From positions 6,700-70,699 of the forward strand of contig JALVDI010000386.1 of NCBI GenBank assembly GCA_027009115.1: 64,000 nucleotides of DNA. Direction: 5' to 3'. The first letter of the stretch is position 1. Each line of letters begins with the position of its first letter. The position numbers and the translations under genes are program-made. This document shows positions 1,013-50,314 of the stretch, in pieces. The notes below the pieces were generated by a model. It saw only the letters and a program-made list of their open reading frames with translations, ran no database searches and had not been told where the DNA came from. The DNA is from Polyangiaceae bacterium. Its GTDB lineage: Bacteria; Myxococcota_A; Polyangia; Polyangiales; Houyiibacteriaceae.

Positions 1013-1972
1013 ATGGCTAGAGGCGGTTACCGCGGCGAGGCGTTTCCATGGGGGGCGGTCAAGCCCGAGCGGCGAGCTGAGAAGGTGCGCGCGATGCTCG
1101 AGGCCGGCGACCGGGCCGGCCTGTGGGCCCTGGTCAAGCACCACCTCATGACCTGGGGGCGTGCGGGCGCGGCGACGAGCCCCCACACCCTGCGCACCTA
1201 CCGCACCGGGCTGAACAGCTTCCTCGACTACCTGGCCGAGCTCGGGCTCGAGGGGGAGCTGCTGGCCGAGGCGGTCCTCGATCCGTCGGAGGACCTGGGG
1301 GCTGAGTACCTGCGCCACCTGCAGCGTCACCACGCCCCCGCCACCGTGAACAACCGCCGGGCGGCGGCGCGGGCCTTCTACCGGGCGCTGCAATGGGCCC
1401 GGGCCACGCAGACCAACCCCTTCGACCTGGCCCCGACCGTGCGGGACCCGACGCCGCGCCACGAGAAGCGCCGCCCCTACGAGGACGACGAAATCAAGCG
1501 GTTGACCCGAGAAGCGGACCCGCACGAGCGGGTCATGGTGCTGCTCGGGGCCCAGGGCGGGCTGCGCATCTCGGAGGCGGCGCGGCTTCGCTGGGACGAC
1601 GTGGACCTCGGGGCGAAGCGGATCACGATCCGGGACGGCAAGGGAGGGAAGACGGCGAGCGTCCTCATCCCCAAGGGGCTGCGCGCCGCGCTCCGCGCCC
1701 TTCGCAAGGCCGAACCCGAGGGCGAGTACGTGCTGCCCTGGCGTACGCCTGCGAGCATCCGGCGCCGGCTCAAAGCGCTGTGCGACCGGGCCGGCGTACG
1801 CTACAAGGGCTACCACGCCCTGCGGCACTACTGCGGCACCTACATCTACCAGCAGACGGGCGACCTGAACACGGCCGCCCGCCAGCTGCGGCACTCCCAG
1901 CTGCAGACGACCGCGATCTACGCAAAGTGGGCTGAGGAGATGGCGCGCGAGCTCCTGGACGGCTGGGACTAG
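1013..1972 (+). CDS. int: Tyrosine recombinase / integrase (XerC/D-Cre-like)
   Basis: 319 aa. The N-terminal SAM-like core-binding region is followed by a catalytic domain with LLGAQGGLRISEAARLRWDD (Arg I), HALRHYCGTY (H-x-x-R) and the C-terminal TTAIYAKW tyrosine. Confidence 0.9.
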   Translation: MARGGYRGEAFPWGAVKPERRAEKVRAMLEAGDRAGLWALVKHHLMTWGRAGAATSPHTLRTYRTGLNSFLDYLAELGLEGELLAEAVLDPSEDLGAEYLRHLQRHHAPATVNNRRAAARAFYRALQWARATQTNPFDLAPTVRDPTPRHEKRRPYEDDEIKRLTREADPHERVMVLLGAQGGLRISEAARLRWDDVDLGAKRITIRDGKGGKTASVLIPKGLRAALRALRKAEPEGEYVLPWRTPASIRRRLKALCDRAGVRYKGYHALRHYCGTYIYQQTGDLNTAARQLRHSQLQTTAIYAKWAEEMARELLDGWD

Positions 1973-3138: not shown

Positions 3139-3504
3139 TTACGCTCCGACGGCGTTGGCCGGCCCCATGTCGGGGTCGTAGAGCACGTAACCCTCGCCGG
3201 ACGGCCAGTAGCTGTGCCCCTGGTAACGCTCGCCCCAGAGCGTCTTCTGCTCGGCGTGGTGCAGCGCGGCCAGGAAGAGCGACCACTCGTCGGGGTAGAG
3301 CTGTTCGAGCCGGGCCACGGTCTCCGGCTCGTCGTGGGGGTGGGGGAGATGCACCGACGGCAGCGTCTCCGCGTCCGTTTCCCGGCGCAGCCAGCGCTTC
3401 AGCGGCCACCAGTACATGCCGTAGGCCTTGTAGCTGCCAGGATCCCGCTGGAGCAGCTGCACCACCCCGCTCAGGGCTTCACGGTCCACCTTGCGCTTGC
3501 TCAT
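3139..3504 (-). CDS. Hypothetical protein (121 aa)
   Basis: ATGA overlap with the stop of the giant gene at 3501-3504. Trp/Tyr-rich, non-degenerate sequence. No domain recognised. Confidence 0.6.
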   Translation of the reverse strand: MSKRKVDREALSGVVQLLQRDPGSYKAYGMYWWPLKRWLRRETDAETLPSVHLPHPHDEPETVARLEQLYPDEWSLFLAALHHAEQKTLWGERYQGHSYWPSGEGYVLYDPDMGPANAVGA

Positions 3505-9500: not shown

Positions 9501-10523
9501 GTCGTCGGGGTCGGCGTGGCGGTAGTGGGTGAGGTACAGCCGCGGCGCGCCGTCCCGCCCCGGGTGGCGCTCGATGACCAGCGGCAGGAAGGGCGGGTTG
9601 GGGATGCGCAGGTGGTAGTCGCCGTCCTCGTCCCCCTCGCGCAGGACGTGCTCACGCAGGCCGGCCCGCTCCAGGAACTCCGCCACCGCCTTGGCGTCGG
9701 CGCTCTTCTGGCGGTCGGCGGGGGCGACGGCCGGCCCCGCGTCCTGTTCGGGCTCGGCCGGCTTGGGCGGCTCCAGCTCCCCGCGGCTGGCCAGGCGGGC
9801 CGCGGCCTCGACCTTCTTGGCGAGGGCGCCCGCCGTCTTGATCAGGTTCTCCGAGCCGTGGTCCACCCGTCCCCCGGCGTCGTAGGCGAAGCTGCTCGCG
9901 GCGTACAGGTCCTTCATCGCCGCCTGCAGCTTCACCAGCATGCGCTGCAGGCGCGACAACGGGTCGTTCCCGCGGGGCAGCTTGCGCGGGCGCAGCTTCT
10001 TGCGCTCCCACTTGGGGGCCGCGTTGGAGTCGAAAACGCGCTCCACCTCGCGCTCGAGCTCGTCCAGGGCGGCCTCGGGATCGCGGCGCAGGGTCGCTTC
10101 CCAGTCGTCCGGCGCCGGCCGCTCTTCGGGTTTGGCCTCGGGTTTGGCCTCGGTCTCGGTCGGCTTGGCCTCGGCCTCGGGCTTGGGGGCGGCGGCCTGC
10201 GGCTTCGGCTTCTGCGCGGCCTCCGCCTCGCCGTCCGCCTTCTCCCAGTACGTCTGCGTGTGAACCTTGCCGCTCTTCTCGCGCACCACCTTTTTGACCG
10301 GCTTGAGGTGCGCCTTGTCGTGCCGGCGGTCGAAGAGCGACGGCTGCTCGGGCTGGCGGCCCTGCCCGTCGAAGAGTGCGGGCTGGTCGGGGGGCGGCGC
10401 CTTGCGCCGGCGCGTCCCCGCAGAGCGCCGCGTGCGGCGCGCGGACCGGCTGGGGGCTGGAGGGAGGTTGAAGAGGGCCTGGGCCTGGGCTTTGATGAGG
10501 TCGTAAATCTCGCGTAGGGTCAT
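3501..10523 (-). CDS. Giant (2340 aa) N6-adenine DNA methyltransferase + SNF2-family helicase fusion (P1 DarB-like)
   Basis: Methyltransferase motifs: EPSMGNGVF (motif I) and AVIANPPYG (motif IV; NPPY at nt 8376-8387). Helicase motifs: ALDVGLGKT (nt 6561-6581), SDEHHAYKN, LTATPTKNSP, and FNLQ...HLDIPWDPGTYWQRLGRAVRQGN. The N-terminal third carries PEAKPTETE low-complexity linkers. The long C-terminal part looks coiled-coil. Confidence 0.9.
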   Translation of the reverse strand: MTLREIYDLIKAQAQALFNLPPAPSRSARRTRRSAGTRRRKAPPPDQPALFDGQGRQPEQPSLFDRRHDKAHLKPVKKVVREKSGKVHTQTYWEKADGEAEAAQKPKPQAAAPKPEAEAKPTETEAKPEAKPEERPAPDDWEATLRRDPEAALDELEREVERVFDSNAAPKWERKKLRPRKLPRGNDPLSRLQRMLVKLQAAMKDLYAASSFAYDAGGRVDHGSENLIKTAGALAKKVEAAARLASRGELEPPKPAEPEQDAGPAVAPADRQKSADAKAVAEFLERAGLREHVLREGDEDGDYHLRIPNPPFLPLVIERHPGRDGAPRLYLTHYRHADPDDPMSDIYLDGELVYKVAPDGALELEETATHDPIRGYELRGRDPQFARVFAQNLTDHFYHEVPRERWEGKNAPQVEPSVPDTAGPAPAELPADPSDQHLREGAEKTVVFADGAHTYRLKGGRWHRVDEEPESAPSAPRQETEPEPQATSEPEPEAKPTAPEAEAGAAEPQAEPEPEPEAKPTETEPEAEAEPAAEEPPQAEAEGRGLNYARPLREILKRIPRFGFALLPKATVAQRTKANARAVELLERLEDEKREPTEEERQVLAAYTGEGGLTGDLNAHYTPAPLAAAMWALLHRVAGQPKTALEPSMGNGVFLHTAPDGTRVTGVELSEVSGKIGKLLHEPRGHKVYPGLSFEEYNQGEGQEHTYDAVIANPPYGIRGSLIGKGKPWLAKAEQYFIDASLDRLKDGGVGVHLINPGPVENPSTRDFRRRLLARAEVLGAYQLPSSVFKESNSGVPPVVLVVRKRPDDEGMTLLRLVQRHGEEALEKAGVLTDAARDFLDGKLHLRDDHLFGTWSGETTYHGYKKIEGELEPGLLERLAQAPTDEQPADMAALERHYGDEYASARDWATSAASNLERGRVEEGTVSEDGRLVFRNGRWHTIQGEDPRLAAAVSIADELREYVHVLNNGSPADAEARRKAVVESLKRYLEEYGNPHQHLAGELKRRHSLAHLLSAVTPKGDVAEHLLNPVTGERGEGVDYTDPYAVAAHLARQRRLTPTRLASVLAGKGWGTTQAMEWLAENGYAMDESGRWIPDDEFYVGDVYERSEALERAAEAPGLSNTEREILRAQAKKFREKLPRKPLEEVEITARDHYVRPEVVRDFIGEVVDPGGQYNVRRTDTGIFIVEHAEGYSLPDHVKEFVKYLNFDTPVRRLTAEQTRTMTRAELDALKAQYREEARKQEQEWADQFKAWAASSDYREELEEGYNRTYNSYIPPKYSNEALDIPDWKGPPLHDFQTEAVRHALDTGNSIMALDVGLGKTYAGLALAQLLEHEGRAKRVMHVMPKSLMGNWRNSYAELGSGRWYITGEFAVPEGTDEQTAADAQKVYDLLKERDLINLNDAEKASGLEPERFRAALRALSRADVARGVPGDHVMVIGETFDPKKKVWREDKMKDVATKLARLAADPSITRVLITRDKFGAIPVRPETLERYVKDDVVRAREFEEAQHDKRKKRSERDWVGKMQQAMEKATAKLFGDQVRAVHWEDLGVDALISDEHHAYKNLHAAPRVFGESPKFLGAGSESQRALDMLIKARHVRDHNDGSGIYALTATPTKNSPLEVYNMLRYVTDAVDRIAPTPEAFISRYTDIGNALVATPGGVEVRTAVLGFKNLGELRGLMNRYIFRRTAQEVGLKIPEREDHEHIFEMHPEQHTEYRALAAAAQHAAANREAEGDEHFFSYLARMRFLTLDPAVYDPERLGHLPNPRFQKAGEIAKQALSEGGKVVMFMDLGQSSMDENPAEDMGEDALREYAKRNKLPHEGMTTAKLRKLVAKHLEESRTNAYARLKQHLIEAGVPEDQIAVVTSKTAKSSAARADIEAAYKAGKIRVVIGSTGVIGEGFNLQTGTTDMVHLDIPWDPGTYWQRLGRAVRQGNTQEKVRNHVLLARGSVDAMTYGTMLGKKGWTDILWNSTEERARNADAMDPENDPYTQMLMQTADNPDDVRAILEKQKKKRLEEAKAAAWQATVQKLQQASILHHSVQKQRGLVAQAQANLEKAHAEGSPEKVAVWNRRLEERSRKLKRLEGEWRARMSDLERNEQVSKDQLDAIREGRPFVIAPSGQVFVEGGHIEQHTKDGGVRHFRILSVSPVTKTMQIAPLVPLQRYGSEPKPSSYKIEDVAELGNIFARPRVDDETLGQELAQRLRHVGVTGLQKVHPDVVRRHHDRIQEALKEWAKQDRGGIGAWVVNREGVPEHRTASYAKPGIPLEEGERLLTNTPEDIELWRKHHGERDLGYDALGALPFYAERVLGKRHWRAIPRPEQAEYLVKASLVELYHKMTGRTR
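8953..8978. repeat. 26-nt exact repeat (second copy 10149..10174) inside Pro/Glu/Ala/Lys low-complexity linkers of the giant gene
   Basis: ctcggtctcggtcggcttggcctcgg occurs at both positions. It encodes EAKPTETE within two PEAKP-rich linker regions (about nt 8884-9110 and 10110-10229). Confidence 0.7.
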
Positions 10524-10753
10524 TCGGTCGCCTCCACCGCGCGGGCCGTCCCGCGCTCGAGCACGTGGCTCAGGTACTCGTCTTCCAGCGCGCTTCCCCG
10601 CGGGGCGCGGATGCCGTCGGCGGCCGCGCGGGCGGCCTCCTCGTGGCGCTCGGCCACGCGACGGGCGGCACCGCGCGCTGCGGCCTCCTCCACGTGGGCG
10701 CGCGCGATCTCGGCGCTGATCTCGGCCAGCAAGCGCTTGGCGTCGTCCTTCAT
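10520..10753 (-). CDS. Hypothetical small helical protein (77 aa) between the two giant genes
   Basis: Track ORF trimmed to ATG 10751-10753 (MKDDAKRLLAEISAE...), which has an AAGGTG SD 7 nt upstream. ATGA overlap with the giant gene start at 10520-10523. Confidence 0.55.
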   Translation of the reverse strand: MKDDAKRLLAEISAEIARAHVEEAAARGAARRVAERHEEAARAAADGIRAPRGSALEDEYLSHVLERGTARAVEATE

Positions 10754-10785
10754 GGTGCGCACCTTATCCGCCGTGGTGGTCAGTC

Positions 10786-13700
10786 CTACCCGAAAAGCGT
10801 TCCCTGCTGCGCCGCGGGGTTCGGCGCCGGCGGGGGCGGGGGCGTTGGATCGTCGTCGTCGTCGCGCTCAGGGCGGGACAGGCCGGCCAGCTGCAGCTGC
10901 AGCGCGAGGCCGGTGTCGTCCATGTGTTCGTACGGCCCCTGGAAGATCTGCCCCAGGAGGCGCTTGCGCTCGAGGCGTTCCAGGTTGGCGCGGTCGTGGT
11001 CGGTGTCCGTCATGAGGGTGTGGATCTCGATCGCCTTCTTCTGCCCGAGGCGGTCAATCCGCGCCGAGCGCTGCTCCCACGTCTTGTGCGTCATGGGCAG
11101 GTCGTAGTGCACCAGCCACTCGCCGCGGTGCTGCAGGTTCGCGCCGGTCGCGCCGGCGTCGGAGGCGACGATGATGTCCACCTCGCCGCGGTCGAAGCGC
11201 TGGCGGATGCGCGCCTTGTCCTGGGCGCTGTGCCCCCCGTGCAGGACGGCGACCTTGTGCCCGGCCCGCTCGAGGGCGGCGGCGATCTCGGCCACCGCCT
11301 TGCGGTTGTGGGCGAAGACCACGCCGCCCTTCCCGCGCCGCTGCTCCGCGAGCGAGAGCAGGTGCTGGATCTTGGCGTTGCGGTCGGCGGGGGCCTCGTT
11401 GATCACGCGCGCCTTCGCGGCCTCATGCAGCACCCCGAGGCTGCGGTTGAGTTTCTGGGCGACCTGCTCGTGCTGGGCCTCGGGGACGCCCTCGAAGCTG
11501 CGGGGCGAAAGGGCCCGCAAGGCCTCCAGGTCCACGTCGCCGCGGTCGCGGGCGCGCACGGCGCGCTGGTAGGCGGCGCGCACCTCTTCCAGCTGCGCCC
11601 GCTGCTCCGGGTGCAGCGGGATCGGGGCGTGCCCGCTGGGGGTGTCGCCGCGGGTGCCGTCCGCGCCCCAGACGACGCGCTTGGTCGTCCCCGAGGGCAC
11701 CACGTCGTGGTAGACGTAGCGGTCGGCCAGCCGCTTCAGCGCCTCACGTGCGGTCAGCGCGTCCACGCCGTAGCGGCGCCGGAACTCGGCCGCGTCGCCG
11801 AAGCGCTTGGGGTCGAGCTTCTTGAGCCAGTCGCCGATCTCGGAGGCGTCGTTCTTGACCGGGCTCCCGGTCATCAGGGTGCCGTACGGCGACAGGCTCA
11901 TCGCGGTGTCGAGCACGGCCGTGAGCAGCGACTCCGCCTTGCCCTGGCGGTTCAGGGCGTCGTGGGCCTCGTCCACGGCGACGTAATGCAGGGGGATCCC
12001 GTGGGCCTCCAGGGCCTCACGCATGAGGCGCTGGCGCTCCGGCAGGTCGGCCTCGAGGAAGCGGTCCTTGAACGCCTCGAGGTCCTCCCCGTGGTGCTCC
12101 GCCATCAGCTTGAGCATGTCGTCGCGGAAGGCCTGGTGGGTAACGGCCACCATGTGCACGTCGGGGGTGGCGTAGGCGGCCCGGCGCTCTTCGTGCGTGG
12201 CCTCGCGCGCGTGCCAGCGGAAGCGGCCGGGCTCGAGCACCCGGGCCATCTCCTCGCCGAACTGGTCGCGCACGATCGAGGGCACCACGAACAGGCCCTT
12301 CTTGGCCTCGCCGCGGTGGTGGAGCTCGGTGAAGGCCCCGATCGCCACCGAGGTCTTGCCGCTCCCCGTCCCCAGGAAGGCGGCGAGCTTGCGGCCTTCG
12401 ATAATGGCCTTTATCGCCCGCTGCTGCTTCACGTACTTGGTGCCCTTGCCCATGGTCACGGGGTACATCTGCACCGGGCTCATGCCCGCGTGGACGCTGC
12501 CGGCAACCTCCGGCATGAGGGCCGCCAGCCGCTTCTCGACGGCGGGGGGCAGGGCGTGCCGCTCGAGGTGCGGCACCGGGGCCTCGGGCTCGACCGCCTC
12601 GTCGCCGGCGTTGGCGAAGAGGCTGGCCTGCGCCATGCGCGCGGCGCGCTCTTCCTCCTTCTTCTTGCGCCACGCCTCGAGCAGCGACCCCTTCCCGCCC
12701 ATGTACGCGAAGCGGCCGCCCTGACGCTCCCGCAGGCTGTGCTGCTGGCGGGCGATCTCGTCCTTGAAGCGGCGGTACCCCTCGGGGTCGCGCACCGCCC
12801 ACAGGTGCTCGCCCCAGCGGTTCGCCTCCTTCGACAGGCGTAGGGGCTGGCCGGTGAGCTTGGCGTGGTAGTGGGCGTAACGGCTCGCCAGCGACCCCCT
12901 CATGTGCTCCTGCACCGCCTCGTAGGCGCGCTGCGGCCCGCCGATGCCCTCCACGAACTTGTTCCACTCGACGAGCTCCGCCTGGTCGCCCAGCGCTTCG
13001 GTGGCCACCCGCTGGCGGTCGCGGTGCCACTTCACCCAGTCCGGGTTCAAGGGGAGGTCGCTCGCCAGCCGGTCGGGGTAGGGGTTGCCCCGCAGGTTGG
13101 CCTTGCCGTCCTCGGTGAGGGTCACGCTGCCGTCGTCGTTTTCCACGTAGTCGCCGCGGCCCAGCCCCATCGCGCGCAAAGTCTCGGCGCGGAGGTCGGG
13201 GTCGGCGGCCACATGGTCACGGAACCGCAGCGTGATGGGGGCGTCGGGGTCTACGGGGGCCGGCTCTCCGAAGAGGCCGCCGTCCTGGGGCGCGCCCCAC
13301 TTCTCCGGCATGGGGTGCTTGGCCTCGTACTCGGCCAGGGCCTTGCGCACCGCGTTCTTGCGCGCGGCCAGCTCCTCGGGGCTCTTGCCCAGGATCTCGG
13401 TCAGGTAGTAGTGCCGCAGCGCACGCTGGTCGCGGTGGTCGAGCTCGCCCAGGGGCTTGAGGGCCACCTGCGTGCGCGGATCGGCGAGCACGCTCAGGTA
13501 GAGGGCCTTGCGGACCTCCGGGGTGTCGCCCACCGTCTGGCCGTAGAAGTCGGCCTCCCCGGGGTGCTCGCGCTCCACGAAGTCACGGGCCAGGCCGCGC
13601 AGCCGCTCATGGAGCTCGGGGTGCTTCTCCTGCAGGCGGTCGTAGTCCACCGGGATCGGTACCCGGTACTCCTCGCCCTTGCGGTTCTTGCGCACCTCCT

Positions 13701-16023
13701 CGCCCGCCCACGTAGGCAGCAGCTCCTCCAGGTGGCGGTCGTACTCCTCCATCTTCTCCGGGGGCACCCAGTCACGGATGAAGCTGCTCGAGGTGAGCAG
13801 GCGCTTGACCTCCGCCGGGGTCCACCCGTCGGCCAGGCGGCTGGCCACGGCCTCCTCCAACCCCGCGCGCACGTCGTCGCGGAAGTTGGGAGCGCGGGCG
13901 AGGCGGCGGGCCTTGGGGGGCTCCTGCTGGTCGAAGGCGCTGGCCGGGTAGCGGGCGAAGCCCGCCGGCAGCCAGTCCTCTTCGTCGTGGCGGCCGGCCT
14001 TGATCGCCTTGACCCGCTCGGCGGTCTCGCGTTCGGCGGGGTCGGCGTCGGGGGTCAGCCGGTCCATGCCCTGCCGGTTGAGCCGCACCCTGAAGCGGTC
14101 GTCGTCCCACTCGTAGGTGTAGTCGCCAGGCTCCAGGCCCAGGGCGCGCAGGGCCGGGATCACGTCGCGGGCGCTCTTGGAGAACTCCAGCTCGAGGTGG
14201 TCGGCCGGGGGCTGGCTGAGGGCGAGGTTGAGCGCCGCGGACGCCTCCAGCTTCCCGAGGGCGGTACCGAGGTGCCGGTGGGCCTCTTCGAGCAGGCGCC
14301 GCTTCCGGCGCACCAGGTCCATGACCGCCGCGGCGTCGGTGGTCGAGGTGATCGCCGGGATCTCGATCGCACGCGCGGCCTCGAGGGCCTTGGTGCCCCG
14401 CTCCATCGCCTCCTTGAGCATGGGCTCGAGGGTGCGGTCGTGGTGTTCGGCCAGGGCCTTGCGGACCTTGTCCAGCTCCTCCTCGCTCAGACCCCGGCGC
14501 AGCGCGTGCGCCGTGAGCTTGACCCCCGCGTCGAGACCCAGGGCATCGAGGGCGAGCCGGTCCAGGGTGTCGCGCCCGAGGACCGCGAGCGCCACGTTGC
14601 TCAGGTGGGCGTAGGCCCCGGCGGCGTGGTGCTTGTACAGGGCCTTGCGCAACTCGCCGTAGCTCCACCCGGGCTCGGCCGCCCGGTTCACGGTGTCCAG
14701 GAAGCTGCGGGTCAGGTCTTCCTTCGCCAGGTCGTCCACCCGGGCCGCGATCTCGCGCGCCAGGTCGGGGTCCACCTCCTCCGTGTGCACGAGCAAGGGG
14801 CTGCCGTCTTCACGCGCGTGGGCCTCCTCGAGGGCGCGCACCTCTTCCTCGCTGGCGTCGGGGTCGTGACCCAGCAGCGCGCGCCGCTTGGCGCGTTGCA
14901 GCTTGCGCAGTTGGCGCGCCGCGGCAAGGAAGGCACGCACGTCCTCGGCGTGCTGGCGCAGCTCCTCCGGCGTGGGGGCCTCCGGCTTGGGGGCGGCCTC
15001 CTCGAGGGCGGCGCCCGCCTCCTGCGCGAGGGGCTGGGCCGCGCGCATGCGCTCCCGGGCGGCGAGCACCCGGGCCTGGACCTCTGGCGCGTACTGCGCG
15101 AGCCGCGCCTGGAACGCCTCTTCGGCCTCGCGCTCGAACTCGTCCTGCGTGAGGCCCCGCTCCTCGGCCAGCTGGCGCATGGAGCCCCCGTAACCGCGGC
15201 TGGCCACCGGAGCCGTCTCCGCCCCGGGGATCTCGTCGGGTTCGATCTGCCCCCGCTCGCCCAGAACCGCGCTGCGTAGGTCGGGGTCGCGCACCAGGTG
15301 CTTGAGGACCTGGCGCTCGATCCGCTTGACGGCCTGGGTCGCGGCGCGAACGTGGCGCGCGGTGGCCAGGCCGGCGGCCAGGGAGGCCGCGTCGCCCTCG
15401 CCGGCCGCCTGCTGCGCGATGGTGCGCAGTTGCTCACGGGTCTCGTCGTCGAGCATGCGCTCGAGGTGCGGGTTTCCGGTGATCCGGGCGGCCGCGGCGA
15501 GCGCGGCCCGGTGCGCGGCCTCGATGTGCTCCTGCAGCCGCTGGGCCAGCTCCTTGCGCCGCTGGCGCTCCTCGGGGGGCACGTCCGGCTTGGGAGCGCG
15601 CTCTTGCTGGCGGCCGCGTCCGATCCGCGTCAGGCGCAACCCGTGCAAACCCTTGGGCCCCGAGACGACGTGGGCCGATCCGTCGGGGTTGACCTTGATC
15701 TTGACGTGGACGTAGTCGGGGTGGTCGGGTCCGTGGGGCTTCAGCGTGATCCAGCGCTCGTTGGGCCCTAGGTCGCCCCCGTCCGCCTTGTGCACCAGCT
15801 CGGCGGGCTCGAGCCAAAACACCAGCGCGAAGCCGTTTTCGTCGTAAGCCAGGTAGTAGCCCTTGGCCAGCGCACCCTTGGCCCGGGCAATGGCGATCCG
15901 TATCGCCTCTCCCTCGTCGTACCCCTCGCGAAGCAGCGCGTTGGCGATCCGCACCGCCCGGCGCCGCACGGGGGGCGCGAGGTGCTTCATGGCATCGGGA
16001 AAGCGTTCTGCGGTCCAGGGCAT
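10786..16023 (-). CDS. Giant (1745 aa) ChaB-domain + SNF2/DEAD-like helicase protein
   Basis: Track ORF 10786..16170 trimmed to ATG 16021-16023, which has a GGTGGGGG SD and does not overlap the upstream gene. The N-terminus MPWTAERFPDAMKHLAPPVRRRAVRIANALL...AIRIAIARAK is ChaB-like. The C-terminal helicase core has LGTGSGKTSVA, VAVDEAHDALN, IIVASDAGATGANLQ and WEQRSARIDRLGQKK (about nt 10990-12480). Confidence 0.85.
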   Translation of the reverse strand: MPWTAERFPDAMKHLAPPVRRRAVRIANALLREGYDEGEAIRIAIARAKGALAKGYYLAYDENGFALVFWLEPAELVHKADGGDLGPNERWITLKPHGPDHPDYVHVKIKVNPDGSAHVVSGPKGLHGLRLTRIGRGRQQERAPKPDVPPEERQRRKELAQRLQEHIEAAHRAALAAAARITGNPHLERMLDDETREQLRTIAQQAAGEGDAASLAAGLATARHVRAATQAVKRIERQVLKHLVRDPDLRSAVLGERGQIEPDEIPGAETAPVASRGYGGSMRQLAEERGLTQDEFEREAEEAFQARLAQYAPEVQARVLAARERMRAAQPLAQEAGAALEEAAPKPEAPTPEELRQHAEDVRAFLAAARQLRKLQRAKRRALLGHDPDASEEEVRALEEAHAREDGSPLLVHTEEVDPDLAREIAARVDDLAKEDLTRSFLDTVNRAAEPGWSYGELRKALYKHHAAGAYAHLSNVALAVLGRDTLDRLALDALGLDAGVKLTAHALRRGLSEEELDKVRKALAEHHDRTLEPMLKEAMERGTKALEAARAIEIPAITSTTDAAAVMDLVRRKRRLLEEAHRHLGTALGKLEASAALNLALSQPPADHLELEFSKSARDVIPALRALGLEPGDYTYEWDDDRFRVRLNRQGMDRLTPDADPAERETAERVKAIKAGRHDEEDWLPAGFARYPASAFDQQEPPKARRLARAPNFRDDVRAGLEEAVASRLADGWTPAEVKRLLTSSSFIRDWVPPEKMEEYDRHLEELLPTWAGEEVRKNRKGEEYRVPIPVDYDRLQEKHPELHERLRGLARDFVEREHPGEADFYGQTVGDTPEVRKALYLSVLADPRTQVALKPLGELDHRDQRALRHYYLTEILGKSPEELAARKNAVRKALAEYEAKHPMPEKWGAPQDGGLFGEPAPVDPDAPITLRFRDHVAADPDLRAETLRAMGLGRGDYVENDDGSVTLTEDGKANLRGNPYPDRLASDLPLNPDWVKWHRDRQRVATEALGDQAELVEWNKFVEGIGGPQRAYEAVQEHMRGSLASRYAHYHAKLTGQPLRLSKEANRWGEHLWAVRDPEGYRRFKDEIARQQHSLRERQGGRFAYMGGKGSLLEAWRKKKEEERAARMAQASLFANAGDEAVEPEAPVPHLERHALPPAVEKRLAALMPEVAGSVHAGMSPVQMYPVTMGKGTKYVKQQRAIKAIIEGRKLAAFLGTGSGKTSVAIGAFTELHHRGEAKKGLFVVPSIVRDQFGEEMARVLEPGRFRWHAREATHEERRAAYATPDVHMVAVTHQAFRDDMLKLMAEHHGEDLEAFKDRFLEADLPERQRLMREALEAHGIPLHYVAVDEAHDALNRQGKAESLLTAVLDTAMSLSPYGTLMTGSPVKNDASEIGDWLKKLDPKRFGDAAEFRRRYGVDALTAREALKRLADRYVYHDVVPSGTTKRVVWGADGTRGDTPSGHAPIPLHPEQRAQLEEVRAAYQRAVRARDRGDVDLEALRALSPRSFEGVPEAQHEQVAQKLNRSLGVLHEAAKARVINEAPADRNAKIQHLLSLAEQRRGKGGVVFAHNRKAVAEIAAALERAGHKVAVLHGGHSAQDKARIRQRFDRGEVDIIVASDAGATGANLQHRGEWLVHYDLPMTHKTWEQRSARIDRLGQKKAIEIHTLMTDTDHDRANLERLERKRLLGQIFQGPYEHMDDTGLALQLQLAGLSRPERDDDDDPTPPPPPAPNPAAQQGTLFG

Positions 16024-16082
16024 CGCCCCCACCGTAGCGGCGGGGGCGGTTGGGGTGCGGGCCCGGTCGGGGCGTCGTCGCG

Positions 16083-16847
16083 CTACGGCTGCCCAGCCAG
16101 CAGCGAGGCCCAGAAGTCCGCGATCGGGATGCGCCGGGTGACCCGGCCCGAGCCGTCGCACACGTGGCACTTCACCTCTTCGGGCTCGGGCTGGTCGTAG
16201 CCGTGCTCGGACCAGAACCTACGTACGAGCTCGTTCACCTGCTCCACGGTGAGCCCGTGACGCTCCTTTGGGGGGTGGGCGGCGTAGAAGGCCTCCCACA
16301 GGGGATGCGCGACGATCCCCTGCCCCCGGCACTCGTCGCACCTGGACTTGGTGACGACGTGGGTGACGGTGCCGCCGTAGGCGTCCTCGACCGCGCCCTT
16401 GACGGCTCGGACCGCGTCGTGCACGTCGCAGGCGTCTTCGTCGCGCGCTTGTCGCTCGAGCTCGGCCAGGGTCAGCCCATGCCGGCGCGCGAGCCAGTTG
16501 GCGAGTTTGCGGGGCATGGGGTTCCGGGTTTTTTCCGGGTCCACGAGCCCCGGGAGGTCGTCGAGGTCATAGGCGCCGAAAAAGTCCTCAAGCGGCTCGT
16601 TGAAGCTGGTCTCGCAACCGTACCCCACCTGGAGGTTCCAATCCACGAGCTCAGCGCAGCGGCCGCAGATCTTGTACGTGCTCCACTTGTGGCCGTCCTC
16701 GTCCAGAACGTCGTGGCGGTAGTAGGTGGCCTTCGGGGGAATCACGCCGCCGCACGAGCTGCACGTATGCTGCCGGCGCGCCTTCAGGCGCTGTTCCTTG
16801 TGGAGCCGTACGTCGCAGTTATCCGTGTAGACCGTCACAGTAGCCAT
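16083..16847 (-). CDS. Cys-rich protein with zinc-ribbon and DnaJ-type CxxCxGxG motifs
   Basis: Trimmed to MATVTVY (ATG 16847) behind an AAGGGGGGGG SD. It contains CSSCGG...CGRC plus CDECRGQG and CHVCDGSG. Confidence 0.6.
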   Translation of the reverse strand: MATVTVYTDNCDVRLHKEQRLKARRQHTCSSCGGVIPPKATYYRHDVLDEDGHKWSTYKICGRCAELVDWNLQVGYGCETSFNEPLEDFFGAYDLDDLPGLVDPEKTRNPMPRKLANWLARRHGLTLAELERQARDEDACDVHDAVRAVKGAVEDAYGGTVTHVVTKSRCDECRGQGIVAHPLWEAFYAAHPPKERHGLTVEQVNELVRRFWSEHGYDQPEPEEVKCHVCDGSGRVTRRIPIADFWASLLAGQP

Positions 16848-19010: not shown

Positions 19011-20106
19011 CCCTGCCCTCCTTTCTGTCGCTGCTCTTTCGGCGGCTCCGCCGCGTACGCCACTCCACGTAGGCCCGCCACGCCTCCGGGGAACAGTAGC
19101 GGACGGGCGTGGCCTTCGGGTCGTCGGGCTGACGCACGGGCACCGTCTTGTGCCCGTAACGGCGCAGCCAGTTGTGGGTAGCGCCCACGCTCCACCCGTT
19201 CCGCTCGGCCTCCTCCGACACGTGCACCCAGCCCTCCGGTGGGCGCTCGAGGATGCCCGCCTCCCACCGCTCACGCCACTCCACGTAAGCCTGCCAAGAC
19301 TCCGGCGGGCAGTAGCGGGAAGGAGCGACCCGCGCATCGGGCTGGCGCGCCAGCACCGTGGGGTGCCCATACCGGCGGAGCCAGTTCTGGACCGCGCCTG
19401 CGCTCCATCCCCTCCGCTCGGCCTCTTCCGACACGTGCACCCAGCCCTCCGGTGGGCGCTCGAGGATGTCCTTGTACTCGATGATCTGGGCGGCGTCCAG
19501 CGGTGCGTACCAGTTGACGCGCCGCCCGCCCGCGCGCGGATCGGGTGCCACGCGCGCCTGAATGCCCAGCGCCTTAGCGCGCGAGAGCACCGTCCGGGTG
19601 TGCAGCCCGGTGCGGCGCGCGATGTCGGCCAGCGACAGCCACCCCTCGGGGATGGAGCGCCGTCGCAGGTACGCCTGGAACAAATCGGGCTCGAAGTACA
19701 GCCGCCCCTTGTACTTCACCGCGCGCAGCTCCCCCCGGCGCGCCGCGGCGGTCAAGGTGTCCACGTGCTGCCCCGAAAGCTCCTGGGCCCGCTGGCTGGT
19801 GAGCCAGCGGGCGGGGCGCTTGGCCACGCGGGGCACGCCGTCGTTGTCCAGGTACTCCTTGGCCACTTCGGCGCGCACGTACGCGCACTTCCCGACTTTG
19901 CGGTAGTACGGGCATCGGGTGTAGTTGCGTTCCAGGCGCCACTCGCGGAACGCCGCGTGGCTGACCCCGGCTTCACGCAGCACCCATTGGACCGGTACGA
20001 AGATCCCGCTGCGGCGCCCGCACAGATCTTCCGGCGGAGCCGGGCACGGCTTCCGGCGACCATCGGACCGGCGGTCACGCATCGAAGAGCGGCTGCGAGC
20101 CGTCAC
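18928..20106 (-). CDS. Multi-HTH DNA-binding protein with tandemly duplicated excisionase/MerR-type (HTH_17-like) modules
   Basis: Two near-identical 71-aa modules are present: ILERPPEGWVHVSEEAERRGWSAGAVQNWLRRYGHPTV...YVEWRERW and ILERPPEGWVHVSEEAERNGWSVGATHNWLRRYGHKTV...YVEWRTRR. Three more diverged copies lie upstream, for example WLTSQRAQELSGQHVDTLTAAARRGELRAVKYKGRLYF. The start may instead be the Met at 20082. Confidence 0.65.
   Translation of the reverse strand: MTARSRSSMRDRRSDGRRKPCPAPPEDLCGRRSGIFVPVQWVLREAGVSHAAFREWRLERNYTRCPYYRKVGKCAYVRAEVAKEYLDNDGVPRVAKRPARWLTSQRAQELSGQHVDTLTAAARRGELRAVKYKGRLYFEPDLFQAYLRRRSIPEGWLSLADIARRTGLHTRTVLSRAKALGIQARVAPDPRAGGRRVNWYAPLDAAQIIEYKDILERPPEGWVHVSEEAERRGWSAGAVQNWLRRYGHPTVLARQPDARVAPSRYCPPESWQAYVEWRERWEAGILERPPEGWVHVSEEAERNGWSVGATHNWLRRYGHKTVPVRQPDDPKATPVRYCSPEAWRAYVEWRTRRSRRKSSDRKEGRDDQARTDQLHRRAPHAAAGRGGAAHAR
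19057..19468. repeat. Tandem direct repeat, two units of about 200 bp (period 213-216 bp), inside the multi-HTH gene
   Basis: The 37-mer cacgtgcacccagccctccggtgggcgctcgaggatg occurs at 19219-19255 and 19432-19468. acgccactccacgta occurs at 19057 and 19273. The intervening sequence is clearly homologous. Confidence 0.8.
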
Positions 20107-22280: not shown

Positions 22281-23303
22281 CTACTTGCTGGCCGCGGCGA
22301 TCAGCGCCTGCAGCTTCTCCTCGAAGTCGGGGTCCGCCTCAGCGCCGCGGTCGGTCGGGGTGCCGGCGTGCGTGACCAGGATCCAGCGGCAACGGCAATG
22401 CGGGTGCAGCGGGATGGCCGCGTGTTCGACGGGGTCGCGGCGGCCGATCGGGTTCTTGCCCACCCATACGTCGAGCTTGGGGTCGCCCGGGCCTGGGTGC
22501 ACCACCGTGAACCGCCGACCATGCAGCGCCCGGCACTTGTCGCAGGCGTCCCGGGCGGCGCTCCACTCCACCAGAGCCCCCTCGGGCAGGGCGGCGATGA
22601 AGCCGGCCGAGCGGTTGCGCGCCGTCTCGGTGAGGGCGACGCGCCGCCAGTCCCGGTTGAGGACTCCGAAGCGGTCGGCAAGTGCCCGGGCCAGGTCTAT
22701 GGGCTGGCGCCGGTCCTCCTCCCACGCGTAGATCGTCTGCAGGATGGCGTGCCGAGTCTGGTCGTCCAGGAAGCGCACGTGCTCGGCAGCGCGCGCCCGC
22801 GCGAACTCGATGCGCGCCGCGTGGCGCTCGCCCAGCAACCCCGTGTAGCGCTCGAGCATCACCTCGGGCCGCACTCGCAGGGCGTAACCGCCCTGCACCA
22901 ACCCGACGATGTAGCTCGCCACGGCGCGCTGCTGCGCGCGTGTCTCGAGCTTGCCCCGCCCGTACCACTCCTCGGTGATCACGCGTACGAGGTCCCGGTA
23001 AGCCTCCGGGGGCACGTCCCCGGGGGCGTAGCCGGCCAGGCGCTCCTGGAAGAGGCGCTGCGCGCGCTCAAGGGCGCGCCGGCGCGCCTCGGCCTGGCTC
23101 GCCTTGGCCAGGGTCTCGACGTGGTACGTGGACCGGATGAGGTCGGCCGGCAGGCTGGGCAGCCCGAGCACCCGGTGCAGGTCGCGGTGGACATGGTACA
23201 GGTACGTGGTCCCCAAAGCGGTCATGGACCGCTCGAGGGCTGCCACCAGCGGGTCGGGGTCCGGGCTCCAAACGTCGCGCTCGGAGGCGGCCGCGGGCCT
23301 CAT
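22281..23303 (-). CDS. Head morphogenesis protein, MuF / SPP1 gp7 family
   Basis: 340 aa. RVALTETARNRSAGFIAAL and the C-terminal IPLHPHCRCRW match the MuF-domain signature (xxTExxRAxNxG ... PPxHxNCRC). It lies downstream of the portal. Confidence 0.8.
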   Translation of the reverse strand: MRPAAASERDVWSPDPDPLVAALERSMTALGTTYLYHVHRDLHRVLGLPSLPADLIRSTYHVETLAKASQAEARRRALERAQRLFQERLAGYAPGDVPPEAYRDLVRVITEEWYGRGKLETRAQQRAVASYIVGLVQGGYALRVRPEVMLERYTGLLGERHAARIEFARARAAEHVRFLDDQTRHAILQTIYAWEEDRRQPIDLARALADRFGVLNRDWRRVALTETARNRSAGFIAALPEGALVEWSAARDACDKCRALHGRRFTVVHPGPGDPKLDVWVGKNPIGRRDPVEHAAIPLHPHCRCRWILVTHAGTPTDRGAEADPDFEEKLQALIAAASK

Positions 23304-23878
23304 GCCTCTCCCCCATCGGGCACCCGCACCAGGCGGCCCTTGCGGGCGATCTCGACCAGCGTGCGCAGCTCCCGGCTCCGTGCCTCCGGCAGCGGCTCGC
23401 CCATGACGACGCGCCCTCGGAGCCTCCCCTCACGCGCCAGTCGGACGAAGGTCTCGGCGGGGATGCGGGTCATCCCCCCGTAGTAGCTCCGGGGGATGTG
23501 GGCGAGGTAGGCGGCCTTTGCCTCCCGTGCCGATCGGAACCCCAGCATTACCTTGTCCTCGTCGTGCTCCCCGGTGTCGGGCCGGACCTGGTGCACCACG
23601 TAGACGTAGCGCGCGTTCTCGTAGGGGCCTACGTACACGTCGAGGTGATCCGGCCGCTTCTTGCCCGGCTCGCGGTCCACGCCTTCCGTGCCGCGGATGT
23701 AGCCGTAGTCGTAGCGCATGAGGGTCTTGCCCTCACGCCCGTTTTCGTCGCGCCACGGGCGGTACTGCCCCTTCTTGGCCTCGATGCTGATCTCCAGCCC
23801 GCGCCAGCGGCGCCGGCCGGCGAGTGGGTACCCCGTCGCGTGCGCCTTGGCGAGACGCACCACCAGACGCGGCATCAT
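23300..23878 (-). CDS. Hypothetical protein with inorganic-pyrophosphatase-like motif
   Basis: 192 aa, between portal and MuF, with ATGA-type overlaps on both sides. YDYGYIRGTEGVDRE...DHLDVYVGP resembles the family-I PPase core NYGFIPxTxxxDGDPxDVLV. Confidence 0.55.
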   Translation of the reverse strand: MMPRLVVRLAKAHATGYPLAGRRRWRGLEISIEAKKGQYRPWRDENGREGKTLMRYDYGYIRGTEGVDREPGKKRPDHLDVYVGPYENARYVYVVHQVRPDTGEHDEDKVMLGFRSAREAKAAYLAHIPRSYYGGMTRIPAETFVRLAREGRLRGRVVMGEPLPEARSRELRTLVEIARKGRLVRVPDGGEA

Positions 23879-25713
23879 TCGACCTCCTCCGGCCAGTCCT
23901 CGATGGCCGTCACGCTCACGGCCTTGGCGGCCAGGTCCTCATCGCCGCGGCCCGGAGCCCTGGGGACATGGTGCTCGAGGGCCCACTCCTCCTCATCGGG
24001 TGACGCGGGGCCCTCCTCTCCCCCGGCACCTTCGGGCGGCGCGCCTTCGCCCTCCTCTTCCGCCGGGGGCATACCCTCCTGCTCGGCCCCCGGCGGCACC
24101 TCGCCCCCCTGCGGCTCCGGGGGAACGCCCTGCGCCTGAGCCTGCTCCTGCTGCTCCTGCTGCAGCGCGAGCTGGTACACCGAGAGCAGCGCCGGGTTCA
24201 TGGGCGCGTTCGCCAGGATCGGCGACTCGGGCTCGGACTCGCCGCGGCTGCGGCGGAACTCGCCCAGCGTGAGCATCTTCTCCTCGTCAGCCTTGGCGAG
24301 CTGCTGGTCCTGCTCGAGCCCCGTCCAGTAGAGCTCGACCTCCGGGTCCACCGTGTACAGGATCTCGTTCAGCGTCTGCCCCAGGAACTGCAGCAGGGGC
24401 CACAGGCCCTTGTCCTTCGAGCTCGCCAGCCGCTCCTCGGTGTCGGAGCCTGAAAGCGTTGAGGGCCGGGCCGAAAACGACTCGAAGTTGATCTCCTCCG
24501 GGTCCATCCCGTAGAGCGCCGCCTTGATCGCTACCAGGAACGTCATCCAGCGGGCAAAGTACATTTCGTTGAAGTCCTGCCCGATGGGCACGAAGCTCAC
24601 GCCCGCGTTCTGCGCGTCGCTGGAGATCATCACCGGCATCCGCCAGCGGTTGCTGAGACCGGTGACGTAGGCGTCCCACTCCATGCGGAACTGCTCGATG
24701 TCCTGCTCGTTGAAGTCCCCCCAGACCGTGAGGACGCCCTTGGGGATGGAGTTATGCGTGAAGCCGCGCAGGTTGAGCGTCAGGGCGTTGACGAAGCCGG
24801 TCACGATACGGATCAGGTCCTCCGGCTCGGGCTGCCCGTACCCGAGCGCCAGGGCCTCCGAGCGCGGCCGCCTGACGCGGTAGAGCAGGTCGTCGTGCGT
24901 GTACCACGCCTGGACGCGCCCCTCGTGCGCCAGGATCGCCACGACCTCGGTAGGGTCGGGGATGTCCAGGCCGTACCGCTGGTGCAGGCTGGGCGGCTCG
25001 CGGTCCGTGGCGCCGTAGTTGGGGTCCACCAGGTAGACCATCCCGCCGTCCACATGCACCCAGCCGTGCGTGCGACCCGACGGGGTGGGGATCAGCTCGA
25101 CCGGTGCCGCGTCGAGCGTGAGGGAGTCCTGAAGGTGTTTCGAGGTCCAGTCCCAGAGGTTGTCGCGCCGCAGCGCGCGGCGCTTGCGGGGGTCGAACTC
25201 CGCCCCCGCGTTGAGGACGTACTGCTCGAGCCACGAAATCCGCGCACGGTCTTCTGGGGTGGTCTTGCGGTGCCGGTCGCGGAAACGGATGCGGTACCCC
25301 GGCTTCCACTCTTGCAGCGAGGGGCGCAGGAAGCGCTGGACCTGCGAAATGCGGGTCCAGATCACGCTTTTCAGGACCGGGTCCTCGCGTACGATGCTGC
25401 GCAGCTGCGGCCAGTCCAGGCCCACGGGGCGCACCAGCCACACCGTGCGCGCGTTGGGGTCCTCGAGGTCGAGGGACACCCGCGCCATGCGCTGCAGTTT
25501 CTGGCCGGGGATCTCCTTCGGGGCGAAGGCCTGCGCCCACCGCATGACCTCGTTTACGGGTACAGCTTTCGCCATGGGGGCAAGCTCTCGGGCAGCCGCC
25601 GCAACGGCCTCGGCGCGTTCGTCGGCGGGCGCGTCCGGGGTCGCGGCCACGCGGGCCGCGCCCAGGTACTCCTTCGTGGGGTCGTACAGGCGGCGCGCCT
25701 TGGGCTTCTTCAT
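23875..25713 (-). CDS. Portal protein
   Basis: About 612 aa, with an acidic Glu/Gln-rich C-terminal tail, directly upstream of the MuF-like gene. ATG 25713 has an AGGGTG SD. The track start at 25722 is a GTG. The call rests on size, synteny and overall character, not on a diagnostic motif. Confidence 0.65.
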   Translation of the reverse strand: MKKPKARRLYDPTKEYLGAARVAATPDAPADERAEAVAAAARELAPMAKAVPVNEVMRWAQAFAPKEIPGQKLQRMARVSLDLEDPNARTVWLVRPVGLDWPQLRSIVREDPVLKSVIWTRISQVQRFLRPSLQEWKPGYRIRFRDRHRKTTPEDRARISWLEQYVLNAGAEFDPRKRRALRRDNLWDWTSKHLQDSLTLDAAPVELIPTPSGRTHGWVHVDGGMVYLVDPNYGATDREPPSLHQRYGLDIPDPTEVVAILAHEGRVQAWYTHDDLLYRVRRPRSEALALGYGQPEPEDLIRIVTGFVNALTLNLRGFTHNSIPKGVLTVWGDFNEQDIEQFRMEWDAYVTGLSNRWRMPVMISSDAQNAGVSFVPIGQDFNEMYFARWMTFLVAIKAALYGMDPEEINFESFSARPSTLSGSDTEERLASSKDKGLWPLLQFLGQTLNEILYTVDPEVELYWTGLEQDQQLAKADEEKMLTLGEFRRSRGESEPESPILANAPMNPALLSVYQLALQQEQQEQAQAQGVPPEPQGGEVPPGAEQEGMPPAEEEGEGAPPEGAGGEEGPASPDEEEWALEHHVPRAPGRGDEDLAAKAVSVTAIEDWPEEVE

Positions 25714-25743
25714 ACCGGACACCCTAGGTGCTGCGGCCGTCGG

Positions 25744-35332: not shown

Positions 35333-35587
35333 ATGAAGACACCCGAAGCAGTTCTCCAGCACGCACCCGCCGCCGCTCACGGCGCCGCGTCGGCGGCCGT
35401 GACGCTCTTGCCGGCTGACGGCTGGCGCGCCGTCTATGAAGGCGGGGACGCGCGACCGTTGGTAGCTTGGCGCTTCGTCGGAGACCGCGGCGAGGGCATC
35501 GTGCTCAACGAAGCGGGGGAGACGGTAGCGGCCCCGATGCTCCCGGGGTTCAAACGCTACCTGTACGTCCAGCGGAGGAGCGCATGA
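35333..35587 (+). CDS. Hypothetical protein (84 aa)
   Basis: GAGGAGG SD. ATGA overlap with dnaN. Confidence 0.5.
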   Translation: MKTPEAVLQHAPAAAHGAASAAVTLLPADGWRAVYEGGDARPLVAWRFVGDRGEGIVLNEAGETVAAPMLPGFKRYLYVQRRSA

Positions 35588-36654
35588 AGTTCGCCCAGGC
35601 CGTCTCACTCCTGGCGGGCCTCGTGCCTACCCGCGCCAGCAACCCGGCGCTGGGCCACATCCACCTCGATACCAAAGACGGGGTGCTCGTCGGCCGCGCG
35701 TCCAACGGGGAAGTGGACCTCGAAATCATGACGACGGAGGCGGCCCTCGAGCTGGATCCGGGCGGGGTGCTGGTGCCCCCGGCGGGGTTTGCGCGGTTTG
35801 TCGCTAGCCTGAAAGAACCTGCGCTGGGATACGACCCCGAGACGCGCGAGCTGGTCGTCAGCGGCGGCGCAGCCTCGGCCCGTTTCCGCACCGGCCGCGC
35901 CGACGACTTCCCCGAGATGCGCGCCTTTGGGGGCGAGGTTCCGCGCGTGCGCATCCCTGCCGGCGAGCTTCGCCGGGCGCTGTCCGTGCGCTTCGCAAGC
36001 TCGGCCGAAGACTACCGCGCGATCTTCCGCGGGGTGCAGTTCGAGTTCCGCGAGAAAGGCTTCCGCACCGCGGCCTCGGACGGGTTCCGCCTCGCGGTCT
36101 ACGACTTCCCCGAAAGCGAGGGCGAGGTCGAACGCCTGTTCGTCATCGCCCGAAAGTCGCTCGACGTGCTGAGCAAGCTCCTTCCCGGGGACGAGTCGCC
36201 CGTAGAGGTGGCCGTCCAAGGCCCGCAGGTGCAGTTCGTGTGGGAAGGCGTGCGCCTGGTCCTCACGGCCATGGAGGGGCAGTTTCCCGACTACGAGCGG
36301 GTCGTGCCCAAGGAGATCACCCACACCATCGAAGCGCCGCGTGACGACCTCCTGACCGCGCTCAAGCGGCTGGCGCCGCTCACGGACCCGAACACGGCCC
36401 GGGTGGACGTGCGGTTCGAGGACGGGGCCGCCACACTCACCGCCGAGGGCGACTACGGTAAGGCCAACGACCGGGTGGAGCTCCTGGCGGTCCAGGGCGA
36501 ACCCGTCCTGCAGTCGTACAACCTGCATTACCTGCAGGAGGCGCTGCAGCACGTGGACACCGATCGTGCCACCCTCGAGCTCAGCGGTCCCGTGACCCCT
36601 GCGGTCATCCGCGGAGAAAGCACCTGGAGCATCGTGGTACCGCTGCGAACCTAG
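35584..36654 (+). CDS. dnaN: DNA polymerase III beta sliding clamp homolog
   Basis: Trimmed to MKFAQAVSLLAGLVPTRASNPALGHIHLDTKDGVLVGRASNGEVDLE. The 356-aa length and the internal ...FRTAASDGFRLAV... and ...FPDYERVVP... motifs are typical of DnaN. Confidence 0.8.
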   Translation: MKFAQAVSLLAGLVPTRASNPALGHIHLDTKDGVLVGRASNGEVDLEIMTTEAALELDPGGVLVPPAGFARFVASLKEPALGYDPETRELVVSGGAASARFRTGRADDFPEMRAFGGEVPRVRIPAGELRRALSVRFASSAEDYRAIFRGVQFEFREKGFRTAASDGFRLAVYDFPESEGEVERLFVIARKSLDVLSKLLPGDESPVEVAVQGPQVQFVWEGVRLVLTAMEGQFPDYERVVPKEITHTIEAPRDDLLTALKRLAPLTDPNTARVDVRFEDGAATLTAEGDYGKANDRVELLAVQGEPVLQSYNLHYLQEALQHVDTDRATLELSGPVTPAVIRGESTWSIVVPLRT

Positions 36655-49537: not shown

Positions 49538-49562
49538 GACTGCACCCTAGGCGTGGGCGCGG

Positions 49563-50288: not shown

Positions 50289-50314
50289 GTCCGTACCCTA
50301 GCGTCCGTGACCGG

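Follow-up and report, generated by a model that had tools for sequence, protein, structure and literature searches.

Why should a phage place variants of one short peptide, a glutamine followed closely by a leucine-phenylalanine pair, on several of its large DNA-handling proteins, and what would such a peptide bind? The question is raised by a 64,000-nucleotide stretch of DNA (the window), positions 6700-70699 of the 79,030-bp contig C386, the longest of the 702 contigs of a metagenome-assembled genome (MAG). The element it carries comes from a heat spring and is, by its gene content, a Lalka-like temperate myophage with P1-style plasmid functions. We believe the peptides on its DarB-like methyltransferase-translocase (P0001) and its giant helicase (P0002), along with a related tail on a Gp3-like protein (P0003), are most likely multivalent binding motifs for the beta sliding clamp.

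The first carrier, P0001 (3501..10523, minus strand), is a 2340-aa DarB-like protein with an N6-adenine methyltransferase and an SNF2 helicase (Pfam N6_Mtase, SNF2-rel_dom, Helicase_C and DUF6908; PHROG DarB-like). It is 52% identical to the DarB-like protein of Thermus phage Lalka and, by tblastn, 30% identical to P1 darB over residues 644-2066. Two traits of a P1 DarB-type protein are present, namely an EcoKI/TaqI-like N6-adenine methyltransferase fused to a superfamily 2 (SF2)/SNF2 helicase and an adjoining Ulx-like gene, and P0001 bears an N-terminal extension of about 560 residues; extension and motif are both missing from P1 DarB. The second carrier is an SF2/SNF2-type helicase of a large phage family (Pfam Helicase_C, DEAD, ResIII and SNF2), 57% identical to the Lalka 'putative helicase'. 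Its open reading frame (ORF) spans 10786..16170 on the minus strand, and the likely start, M50 at 16023, gives the 1745-aa database form P0130 (10786..16023).

Translation fixes where the peptides lie. DQPALFD (copy 2) occupies residues 46-52 of P0001 (10368..10388, minus strand) and EQPSLFD (copy 3) residues 59-65 (10329..10349, minus strand). P0002 ends ...AAQQGTLFG-stop, with QGTLFG-COOH at 10789..10806 on the minus strand after an acidic, proline-rich (D5/P-rich) linker (DDDDDPTPPPPPAPNPAAQ), and the 432-aa P0003 (20075..21373) ends ...GSQPLFDA-stop, with QPLFDA-COOH at 20078..20095, also on the minus strand. The original prediction had noticed these four and placed them at the extreme termini of three proteins, which is correct for the C-terminal peptides of P0002 and P0003; the P0001 copies lie inside the first 65 residues and not at the very end. 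It had also assigned them all to one Q-P-x-L-F-D type, and here P0001 and P0002 do have Q-x-x-L-F while P0003 has Q-P-L-F, one residue shorter. Its label of P0002 as a ChaB protein finds no support in Pfam, which detects no ChaB domain in the P0002 N-terminus at E<=0.1. Two further copies can be added. QAQALF (copy 1; P0001 residues 13-18, 10470..10487, minus strand) is degenerate here and aligns with the canonical K-[AS]-Q-x-x-L-F-D-x-P of homologues, and QASLF (P0130 residues 1132-1136, 12616..12630, minus strand) sits in a variable linker upstream of the helicase core. The AlphaFold2 model of the P0001 N-terminus has a helix at residues 3-17, with copy 1 at its end, and then a predicted local distance difference test (pLDDT) score below 50 over residues 24-69, so that copies 2 and 3 are predicted to be disordered. 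Flexible segments or free termini are thus found at P0001 24-69, the P0003 tip and the P0002 tail, and copy 1 is predicted at a helix end.

The established clamp-binding consensus is QL[SD]LF. Among bacterial clamp clients, Pol II, Pol IV and Pol V carry it as this pentapeptide, and others as a hexapeptide of the form Q-x-x-L-x-[LF], such as the QLSLPL of Hda; the motif was reportedly set out by Dalrymple et al. in 2001. The peptide of the two giants agrees with this consensus in every defining position, including the glutamine and a free C-terminal L-F. The pentapeptide Q-x-x-[LM]-F is present in P0001 copies 2 and 3 (QPALF, QPSLF), in the C-terminal QGTLF of P0002 and in its internal QASLF, whereas P0001 copy 1 (QAQALF) and P0003 (QPLF) each depart from it by one residue. 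As in known clients, the peptides often occupy a free terminus or a disordered linker, and the canonical variants QLSLF, QLALFD and QLGLFD occur among homologues. A sibling phage (an IMG/VR contig of 80,753 bp, 71-86% identical and otherwise collinear with the window phage) has QPALFG at the position of copy 2 and QPALPFG, like the hexapeptide clamp motif, at that of copy 3. There are differences as well. The putative motifs here belong to a virion-type anti-restriction methyltransferase-translocase and to a phage SF2 helicase of about 1,500-1,750 aa, neither of them a polymerase or a repair factor; as many as three copies stand in tandem, and position 2 mostly holds P or G in place of L.

The nearest precedent for a proline at position 2 comes from phage Mu, whose late-transcription activators of the MuC/Mor type are likewise phage proteins outside replication. 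MuC has a motif at each end, QHDLF and QPDLF, and both are experimentally proven clamp binders; the family consensus is QPDLF, with Pro at position 2 as here, and an L-to-A change abolishes both binding and function (PMC12867686). As a small transcription factor, MuC is unlike the giant DNA-modifying and translocating enzymes of the window phage.

The strongest evidence is conservation in homologues, a check that supports the giants and not P0003: the motif is kept in the DarB-like and helicase families and is lacking from the Gp3-like family. The search for DarB-like homologues gave 120 proteins, in which Q..[LM][FW] occurs 39 times in the first 130 residues against 58 times in the remaining ~276,000, a density 11.9-fold higher (binomial p=2e-24, which overstates independence since the sequences are related). 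Reversed or near-miss control patterns show an N-terminal bias of only 0.3-2.7 fold in the same set. One to three copies are present in 21 of the 36 closest homologues, and the family consensus at the N-terminus reads K-A-x-Q-[PGL]-[STAGD]-L-F-[DGAE]-A-P. In an alignment of 23 sequences, which are 14-40% identical in this segment, L17 and F18 are the sole invariant columns before the methyltransferase region. The Lalka DarB-like protein has QPALFA followed by two copies of QPTLWE, and that of Bordetella phage PHB04 has QLALFD and QGSLFA.

The helicase tail tells much the same story over a wider range of hosts. We collected 120 proteins, 79 IMG/VR loci and 46 loci in genomes of many phyla, which together give 167 distinct tails. 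Seventy-three of these end in Q..[LM][FLIW](G/A)?-COOH, 58 of them strictly in Q..[LM]F, and another 19 have the hydrophobic pair at the end without the Gln. The tail logo is [DE]-[ESQ]-Q-[GAD]-[GSA]-[LM]-F, with EEEQLSLF as one example. Tails of the L-F type occur in loci from Deinococcaceae, Burkholderiales, Acetobacteraceae, Nitrosomonas, Solirubrobacterales and Spirochaetales, and because the same tail is found in loci from such distant hosts, it points to a universal bacterial receptor. Of 29 aligned homologues, 24 retain the internal copy in the form Q-x-x-[LMF]-F (AQMGFF, AQMGLF, AQSALF), with a variable acidic linker after it, and the remaining five are degenerate at one position. The helicase family also marks a widespread group of phages of about 75-100 kb. 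Many of the contigs are 80-98 kb long, several have direct terminal repeats and are about 100% complete according to CheckV, and they come from Deinococcota, Alpha-, Beta- and Gammaproteobacteria, Actinomycetota, Spirochaetes, Abditibacteriota and others. Cultured members include Lalka, phiMa/Cumys, Bordetella PHB04 and Morganella Mecenats66.

It is fair to ask if a pentapeptide this short could arise by chance, or as a by-product of composition, given that the genome has 70% G+C and the linkers are of low complexity and rich in Pro, Ala and Gln. The rest of the MAG, which served solely as compositional background, does contain Q..LF 118 times, and the P0003 tail is not conserved. The more specific QP.?LFD occurs three times in the ~24,000 aa of the contig and once in the remaining ~1.47 million aa of the MAG. 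Against chance stand the strong positional enrichment with its flat negative controls, an L-F pair that is invariant among homologues of such low identity, and identical tails in phages of ~64-70% G+C from different phyla. We consider chance very improbable as a general account. The pattern exceeds it, and given the conservation chance is effectively refuted for P0001 and P0002; it is possible for P0003 alone. The sole other QP.LFD in the MAG belongs to a 1609-aa protein on contig C46 of the assembly (G000, 3780-8609), as PRQPDLFD twelve residues before the C-terminus. This protein was considered as a relative of the three carriers and set aside as unrelated; its first 120 residues have no Pfam match.

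P0003 (minus strand) deserves separate treatment. It belongs to the Gp3-like family, with the fold of the phiC31 recombination directionality factor (RDF; Pfam PF18897, E=2.5e-13), and has a helical C-terminal half. The AlphaFold2 model has a mean pLDDT of 88 and matches the phiC31 RDF (9teh chain I) in Foldseek with E=2.2e-6 and a TM score of 0.52 normalised to the target; its last block has a pLDDT of 43, so the tip is predicted to be disordered after a helix at 404-424. No homologue of the gene was found in the sibling phage, Lalka or PHB04. With an adjoining multi-helix-turn-helix (excisionase-type) gene it makes up an inserted two-gene module (18928-21373) that is missing from the collinear sibling. 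That a recently acquired Gp3-like gene bears the QP-LFD tail style of this very phage is suggestive, as a single case. A phiC31-type RDF would be expected to have a large serine integrase as partner in the same element; the only recombinase identified among the ORFs scanned was a tyrosine recombinase (1013..1972), and no search aimed at serine recombinases was made.

The Gp3-like family brings up another account, in which the peptides recruit some replication or repair partner other than the clamp. In SSB (DDDIPF), T7 gp4 and T7 gp2.5, acidic tails that end in Phe do exactly this and bring in polymerases or helicase loaders. A free Phe also closes the acidic helicase tails, and about 17 of 150 Gp3-like family representatives end in an SSB-tip-like acidic-x-[PA]-F (LLDDMPF, TVEPAF, LQDVPF, DQLVDAF), which shows tails there to be swappable docking tips. 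However, the invariant Gln at -5 and the Leu/Met at -2 fit the clamp motif, whereas the SSB tip has Pro at -2 and Ile at -3, and the N-terminal and internal copies lack the free C-terminus that SSB-type tips require. We find this account improbable for the peptides as a whole. The P0003 model also weakly matches SSB OB folds in Foldseek, and a role like that of SSB, or one in replication, is possible for the Gp3-like 'RDF' family.

Several observations weigh against a clamp-binding role, and some of them point to the phage head instead. On this idea, which the original prediction gave as its alternative, the peptides would be capsid-targeting or packaging signals. They would dock the giants onto a conserved head component, be it the coat interior, the portal or a Dar-like partner (Ulx, for instance), and the giants would thus be packaged and leave the head again with the ejected DNA. 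In P1, residues 1-30 of DarB suffice as a capsid-targeting signal, and DarB and Ulx are both head proteins (PMC9024508); the window phage has the DarB-Ulx pair too. The genes for the DarB-like protein and the helicase are found within the head-gene block or next to it: in PHB04 they stand with Ulx between the portal and the protease/major capsid protein genes, here they are downstream of the portal and MuF-like genes, and the Lalka helicase is inside the tail module. For the window phage the evidence on packaging is this synteny with head genes, and no virion proteomics for PHB04 or Mecenats66 was found in the literature. Copy 1 is always at residues ~9-18 in the DarB-like homologues, with an invariant L-F, so it shares the N-terminal position of the P1 signal, and it is predicted to be helical and not disordered. 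Related phages have homologous coat and portal proteins, which makes a conserved phage receptor possible. DarB-like proteins are also thought to act on incoming, unreplicated DNA, where there is no evident reason to need a clamp. Other difficulties have nothing to do with the head. The P0003 peptide is unique as well as one residue short, with no similar tail in any of the 149 other Gp3-like homologues examined, and the homologue counts are phylogenetically non-independent. Further, 29 of the 167 distinct helicase tails, those of the cultured Lalka helicases among them, end in ...[AV][AD] (the E-x-A-A type), so the tail is dispensable for part of the family. As for prior work, the literature searches turned up no paper that ties DarB-like proteins or the helicase family to the clamp, and a survey of polyvalent proteins makes no mention of it.

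A head signal is the main rival reading and a live one, though we think it unlikely. The signal of P1 DarB has no Q-x-x-L-F and is unrelated in sequence, and the whole extension is missing from P1 DarB. In the window phage no Q-x-x-L-F was found at or near the termini of the portal, protease, scaffold-like, MuF-like and InPase proteins, nor in the PHB04 and Lalka head proteins that were read. Helicases with ...EAA tails occur in otherwise similar phages. Every residue of the clamp consensus is matched by the peptide, the Gln and the free C-terminal L-F among them. The motif also appears on proteins encoded outside the head-gene block of PHB04-type phages. One is an orphan N6_N4 methyltransferase of PHB04 (gp50, 49469-50485) that ends ...PQAELFGSVA (tail ...SPSPQAELFGSVA). 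The other is a Cys-rich, zinc-ribbon-like family of about 175 aa that ends in Q-[LA]-R-L-[FW]-COOH (QLRLW, QLRLF, QARLW) in three genomes: PHB04 (gp72, 61034-61555), G002 (C1:84621-85154) and G014 (C1:2920-3444). This family has no Pfam match and, by analogy with MuC, could be a clamp-coupled regulator. The alternative class of helicase tails, ...[EK]-x-[AV]-A-COOH (GGEDEAA, KGVEHVA, TPEELAA), is mutually exclusive with the L-F tail and resembles the ...AA ends of the ssrA type.

If the peptides bind a clamp, it is important to ask which one. The window phage encodes a DnaN homologue of 356 aa (35584..36654, plus strand), as originally predicted; it matches all three Pfam clamp domains, and its best solved relative is the Deinococcus radiodurans clamp 4trt (E=7e-47). 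Compared with E. coli, and in E. coli numbering, its cleft retains R152, G174, R176, L177, P242, R246, V247, N320, Y323, P363 and R365 and has the substitutions L155F, T172S, H175F, M362V and M364L, so the peptide-binding cleft of the phage clamp is, by these residues, intact. DnaN, however, scores above the Pfam cut-off in only 3 of 25 near-complete helicase-bearing relatives, with the detected clamp of the sibling as positive control. The peptides are therefore independent of the phage clamp; across the family the usual partner would be the host clamp, and here the phage clamp would be an optional second one. Because the window phage and the Lalka phages bring their own clamp, without a polymerase, the phage and host clamps are both candidate partners in these cases. 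To look for a host dialect of the clamp motif, searches for DnaE and Y-family polymerases were made in Calidithermus and a Deinococcaceae MAG; they gave one Q..[LF], in a PHP domain, and the loci were too short to cover the genes. The tether to a sliding clamp that the original prediction proposed thus gains from the consensus fit, the predicted disorder, the conservation in two of the three protein families and the intact cleft of the phage clamp; its tie to an element with its own clamp is not general, and it loses P0003, whose tail is not conserved.

How would such a clamp tether work? At its N-terminus the DarB-like protein would have a flexible leash with as many as three copies in tandem, and its partner, the SF2 helicase, would present one internal copy and one at its free C-terminus; the acquired Gp3-like protein would have gained a related tail. 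The L-F pair would insert into the hydrophobic cleft between clamp domains II and III, with the Gln in the adjoining subsite, and two or more copies per polypeptide could fill both clefts of the clamp dimer. Enzymes that track along DNA would in this way be tethered to clamps loaded on phage DNA, and this could link protective methylation or remodelling to replication or to primer-template junctions. The copies might also, or instead, compete with the clients of the host clamp.

The phage and its host can be placed with some care. In tblastn against annotated phages, the coat, protease, portal, TerL, sheath and baseplate proteins share 45-73% identity with their counterparts in Thermus phage Lalka27a, and the genes include ParA, a winged-helix initiator, an IstB-like loader, a Xer-like tyrosine recombinase and DnaN; Pfam and ORF scans found no DNA polymerase gene in the window phage. 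The Lalka phages are likewise reported to have these replication and plasmid-type genes and DnaN without a DNA polymerase (PMC11437467). A copy of the phage contig at 99% identity is filed under Oceanithermus sp., and no near-identical DNA was found in the phage collection. The chromosomal DnaN of the MAG (contig C650 of G000, L001:622-1767, minus strand) matches proteobacterial clamps at E ~1e-52 to 1e-54 and the Deinococcus clamp at E=4e-27, unlike the phage clamp, which is closest to that of D. radiodurans. Because the one is proteobacteria-like and the other Deinococcota-like, the phage contig was probably binned into this 5.4-Mb MAG by mistake, and we set aside the rest of the MAG as a host proteome for the same reason. 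The true host is probably a member of the Thermales.

Directly downstream of the DarB-like gene is an Ulx-like gene (3139..3504, minus strand), 44% identical to a Lalka27a stretch annotated as an Ulx-like anti-restriction protein and a weak match to the PHB04 Ulx-like gene. Between the two giant genes lies an ORF of 80 aa (10520..10762, minus strand) whose stop codon overlaps the P0001 start codon; it has a high G+C content at third codon positions and no Pfam match, and is kept as an 80-aa ORF in the sibling phage. Upstream of both giants on the same strand are the portal, an InPase-domain protein and a MuF-like minor head protein (22281..25722; Pfam Phage_portal and Phage_Mu_F, both below the curated cut-off, and InPase), of which the portal is 73% and the minor head protein 48% identical to the Lalka counterparts. 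The InPase-domain protein (inorganic pyrophosphatase, PF18823; 23300-23878) lies between the portal and MuF-like genes, and a RelA/SpoT-domain protein (2306-3106) belongs to the same leftward gene block downstream of the Ulx-like gene. Both kinds of domain are known from phage polyvalent or ejected proteins.

Two phage systems are also among the closest known. One is P1 DarB/Ulx (PMC9024508; Iyer et al. 2017, PMC5512222), with which the window phage shares the dyad of methyltransferase and SNF2 helicase followed by an Ulx-like gene near the portal gene, with the 30% identity falling in the catalytic part. P1 DarB has about 70 residues before the methyltransferase domain, against about 600 in P0001, lacks Q-x-x-L-F copies and DUF6908, and has an unrelated N-terminal signal. 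The phages Lalka8, 27a and 27b (PMC11437467) are the closest cultured relatives, and share with the window phage the DarB-like/Ulx pair, the helicase, DnaN and the lack of a DNA polymerase, as well as the structural proteins already described. Unlike in the window phage, their helicase gene belongs to the tail module and its product closes with ...GKGVEHVA in place of an L-F tail, and they have no Gp3-like gene. Their published description does not mention these peptides (PMC11437467).

A third likeness is found in eukaryotes. DNMT1 and the SNF2-family proteins ZRANB3 and SMARCAD1 carry PCNA-interacting peptides, so that a maintenance methyltransferase and translocases are recruited to a clamp through a short Gln-containing hydrophobic peptide. 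There the clamp is PCNA and the peptide a PIP box or APIM motif; the likeness is one of logic only, with no homology between the peptides.

We can tentatively carry the clamp-binding reading further, as a possibility rather than an expectation. A large group of myophages of ~70-100 kb, spread over many phyla, may hitch its DarB-like methyltransferase-translocase and giant helicase to the host clamp through multivalent peptides. Methylation and remodelling would be coupled to clamp loading and replication, tandem copies would displace host clients, and the orphan methyltransferase, the Cys-rich protein of about 175 aa and the Gp3-like protein would belong to the same 'tool-belt'. If this is true, it would be a viral, bacterial counterpart of the coupling of DNMT1 and SNF2 proteins to PCNA, and the clients of the bacterial clamp would extend to DNA methyltransferases and SNF2-type translocases in parallel with eukaryotic PCNA biology. 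The Dar system of P1 has been known since the 1980s, yet the way in which it works in cis on the DNA of the phage has not been made clear. With a clamp as tether, one could see how a methyltransferase-translocase of 250 kDa locates phage DNA and follows it, and Dar-type anti-restriction would gain a previously undescribed mechanistic handle. It would also offer a rationale for the many temperate phages that have a beta clamp but no polymerase. The N-terminal copies are also present in the Lalka phages, which are cultured and infect Thermus thermophilus, so that the idea is directly testable in a genetically tractable, non-pathogenic host.

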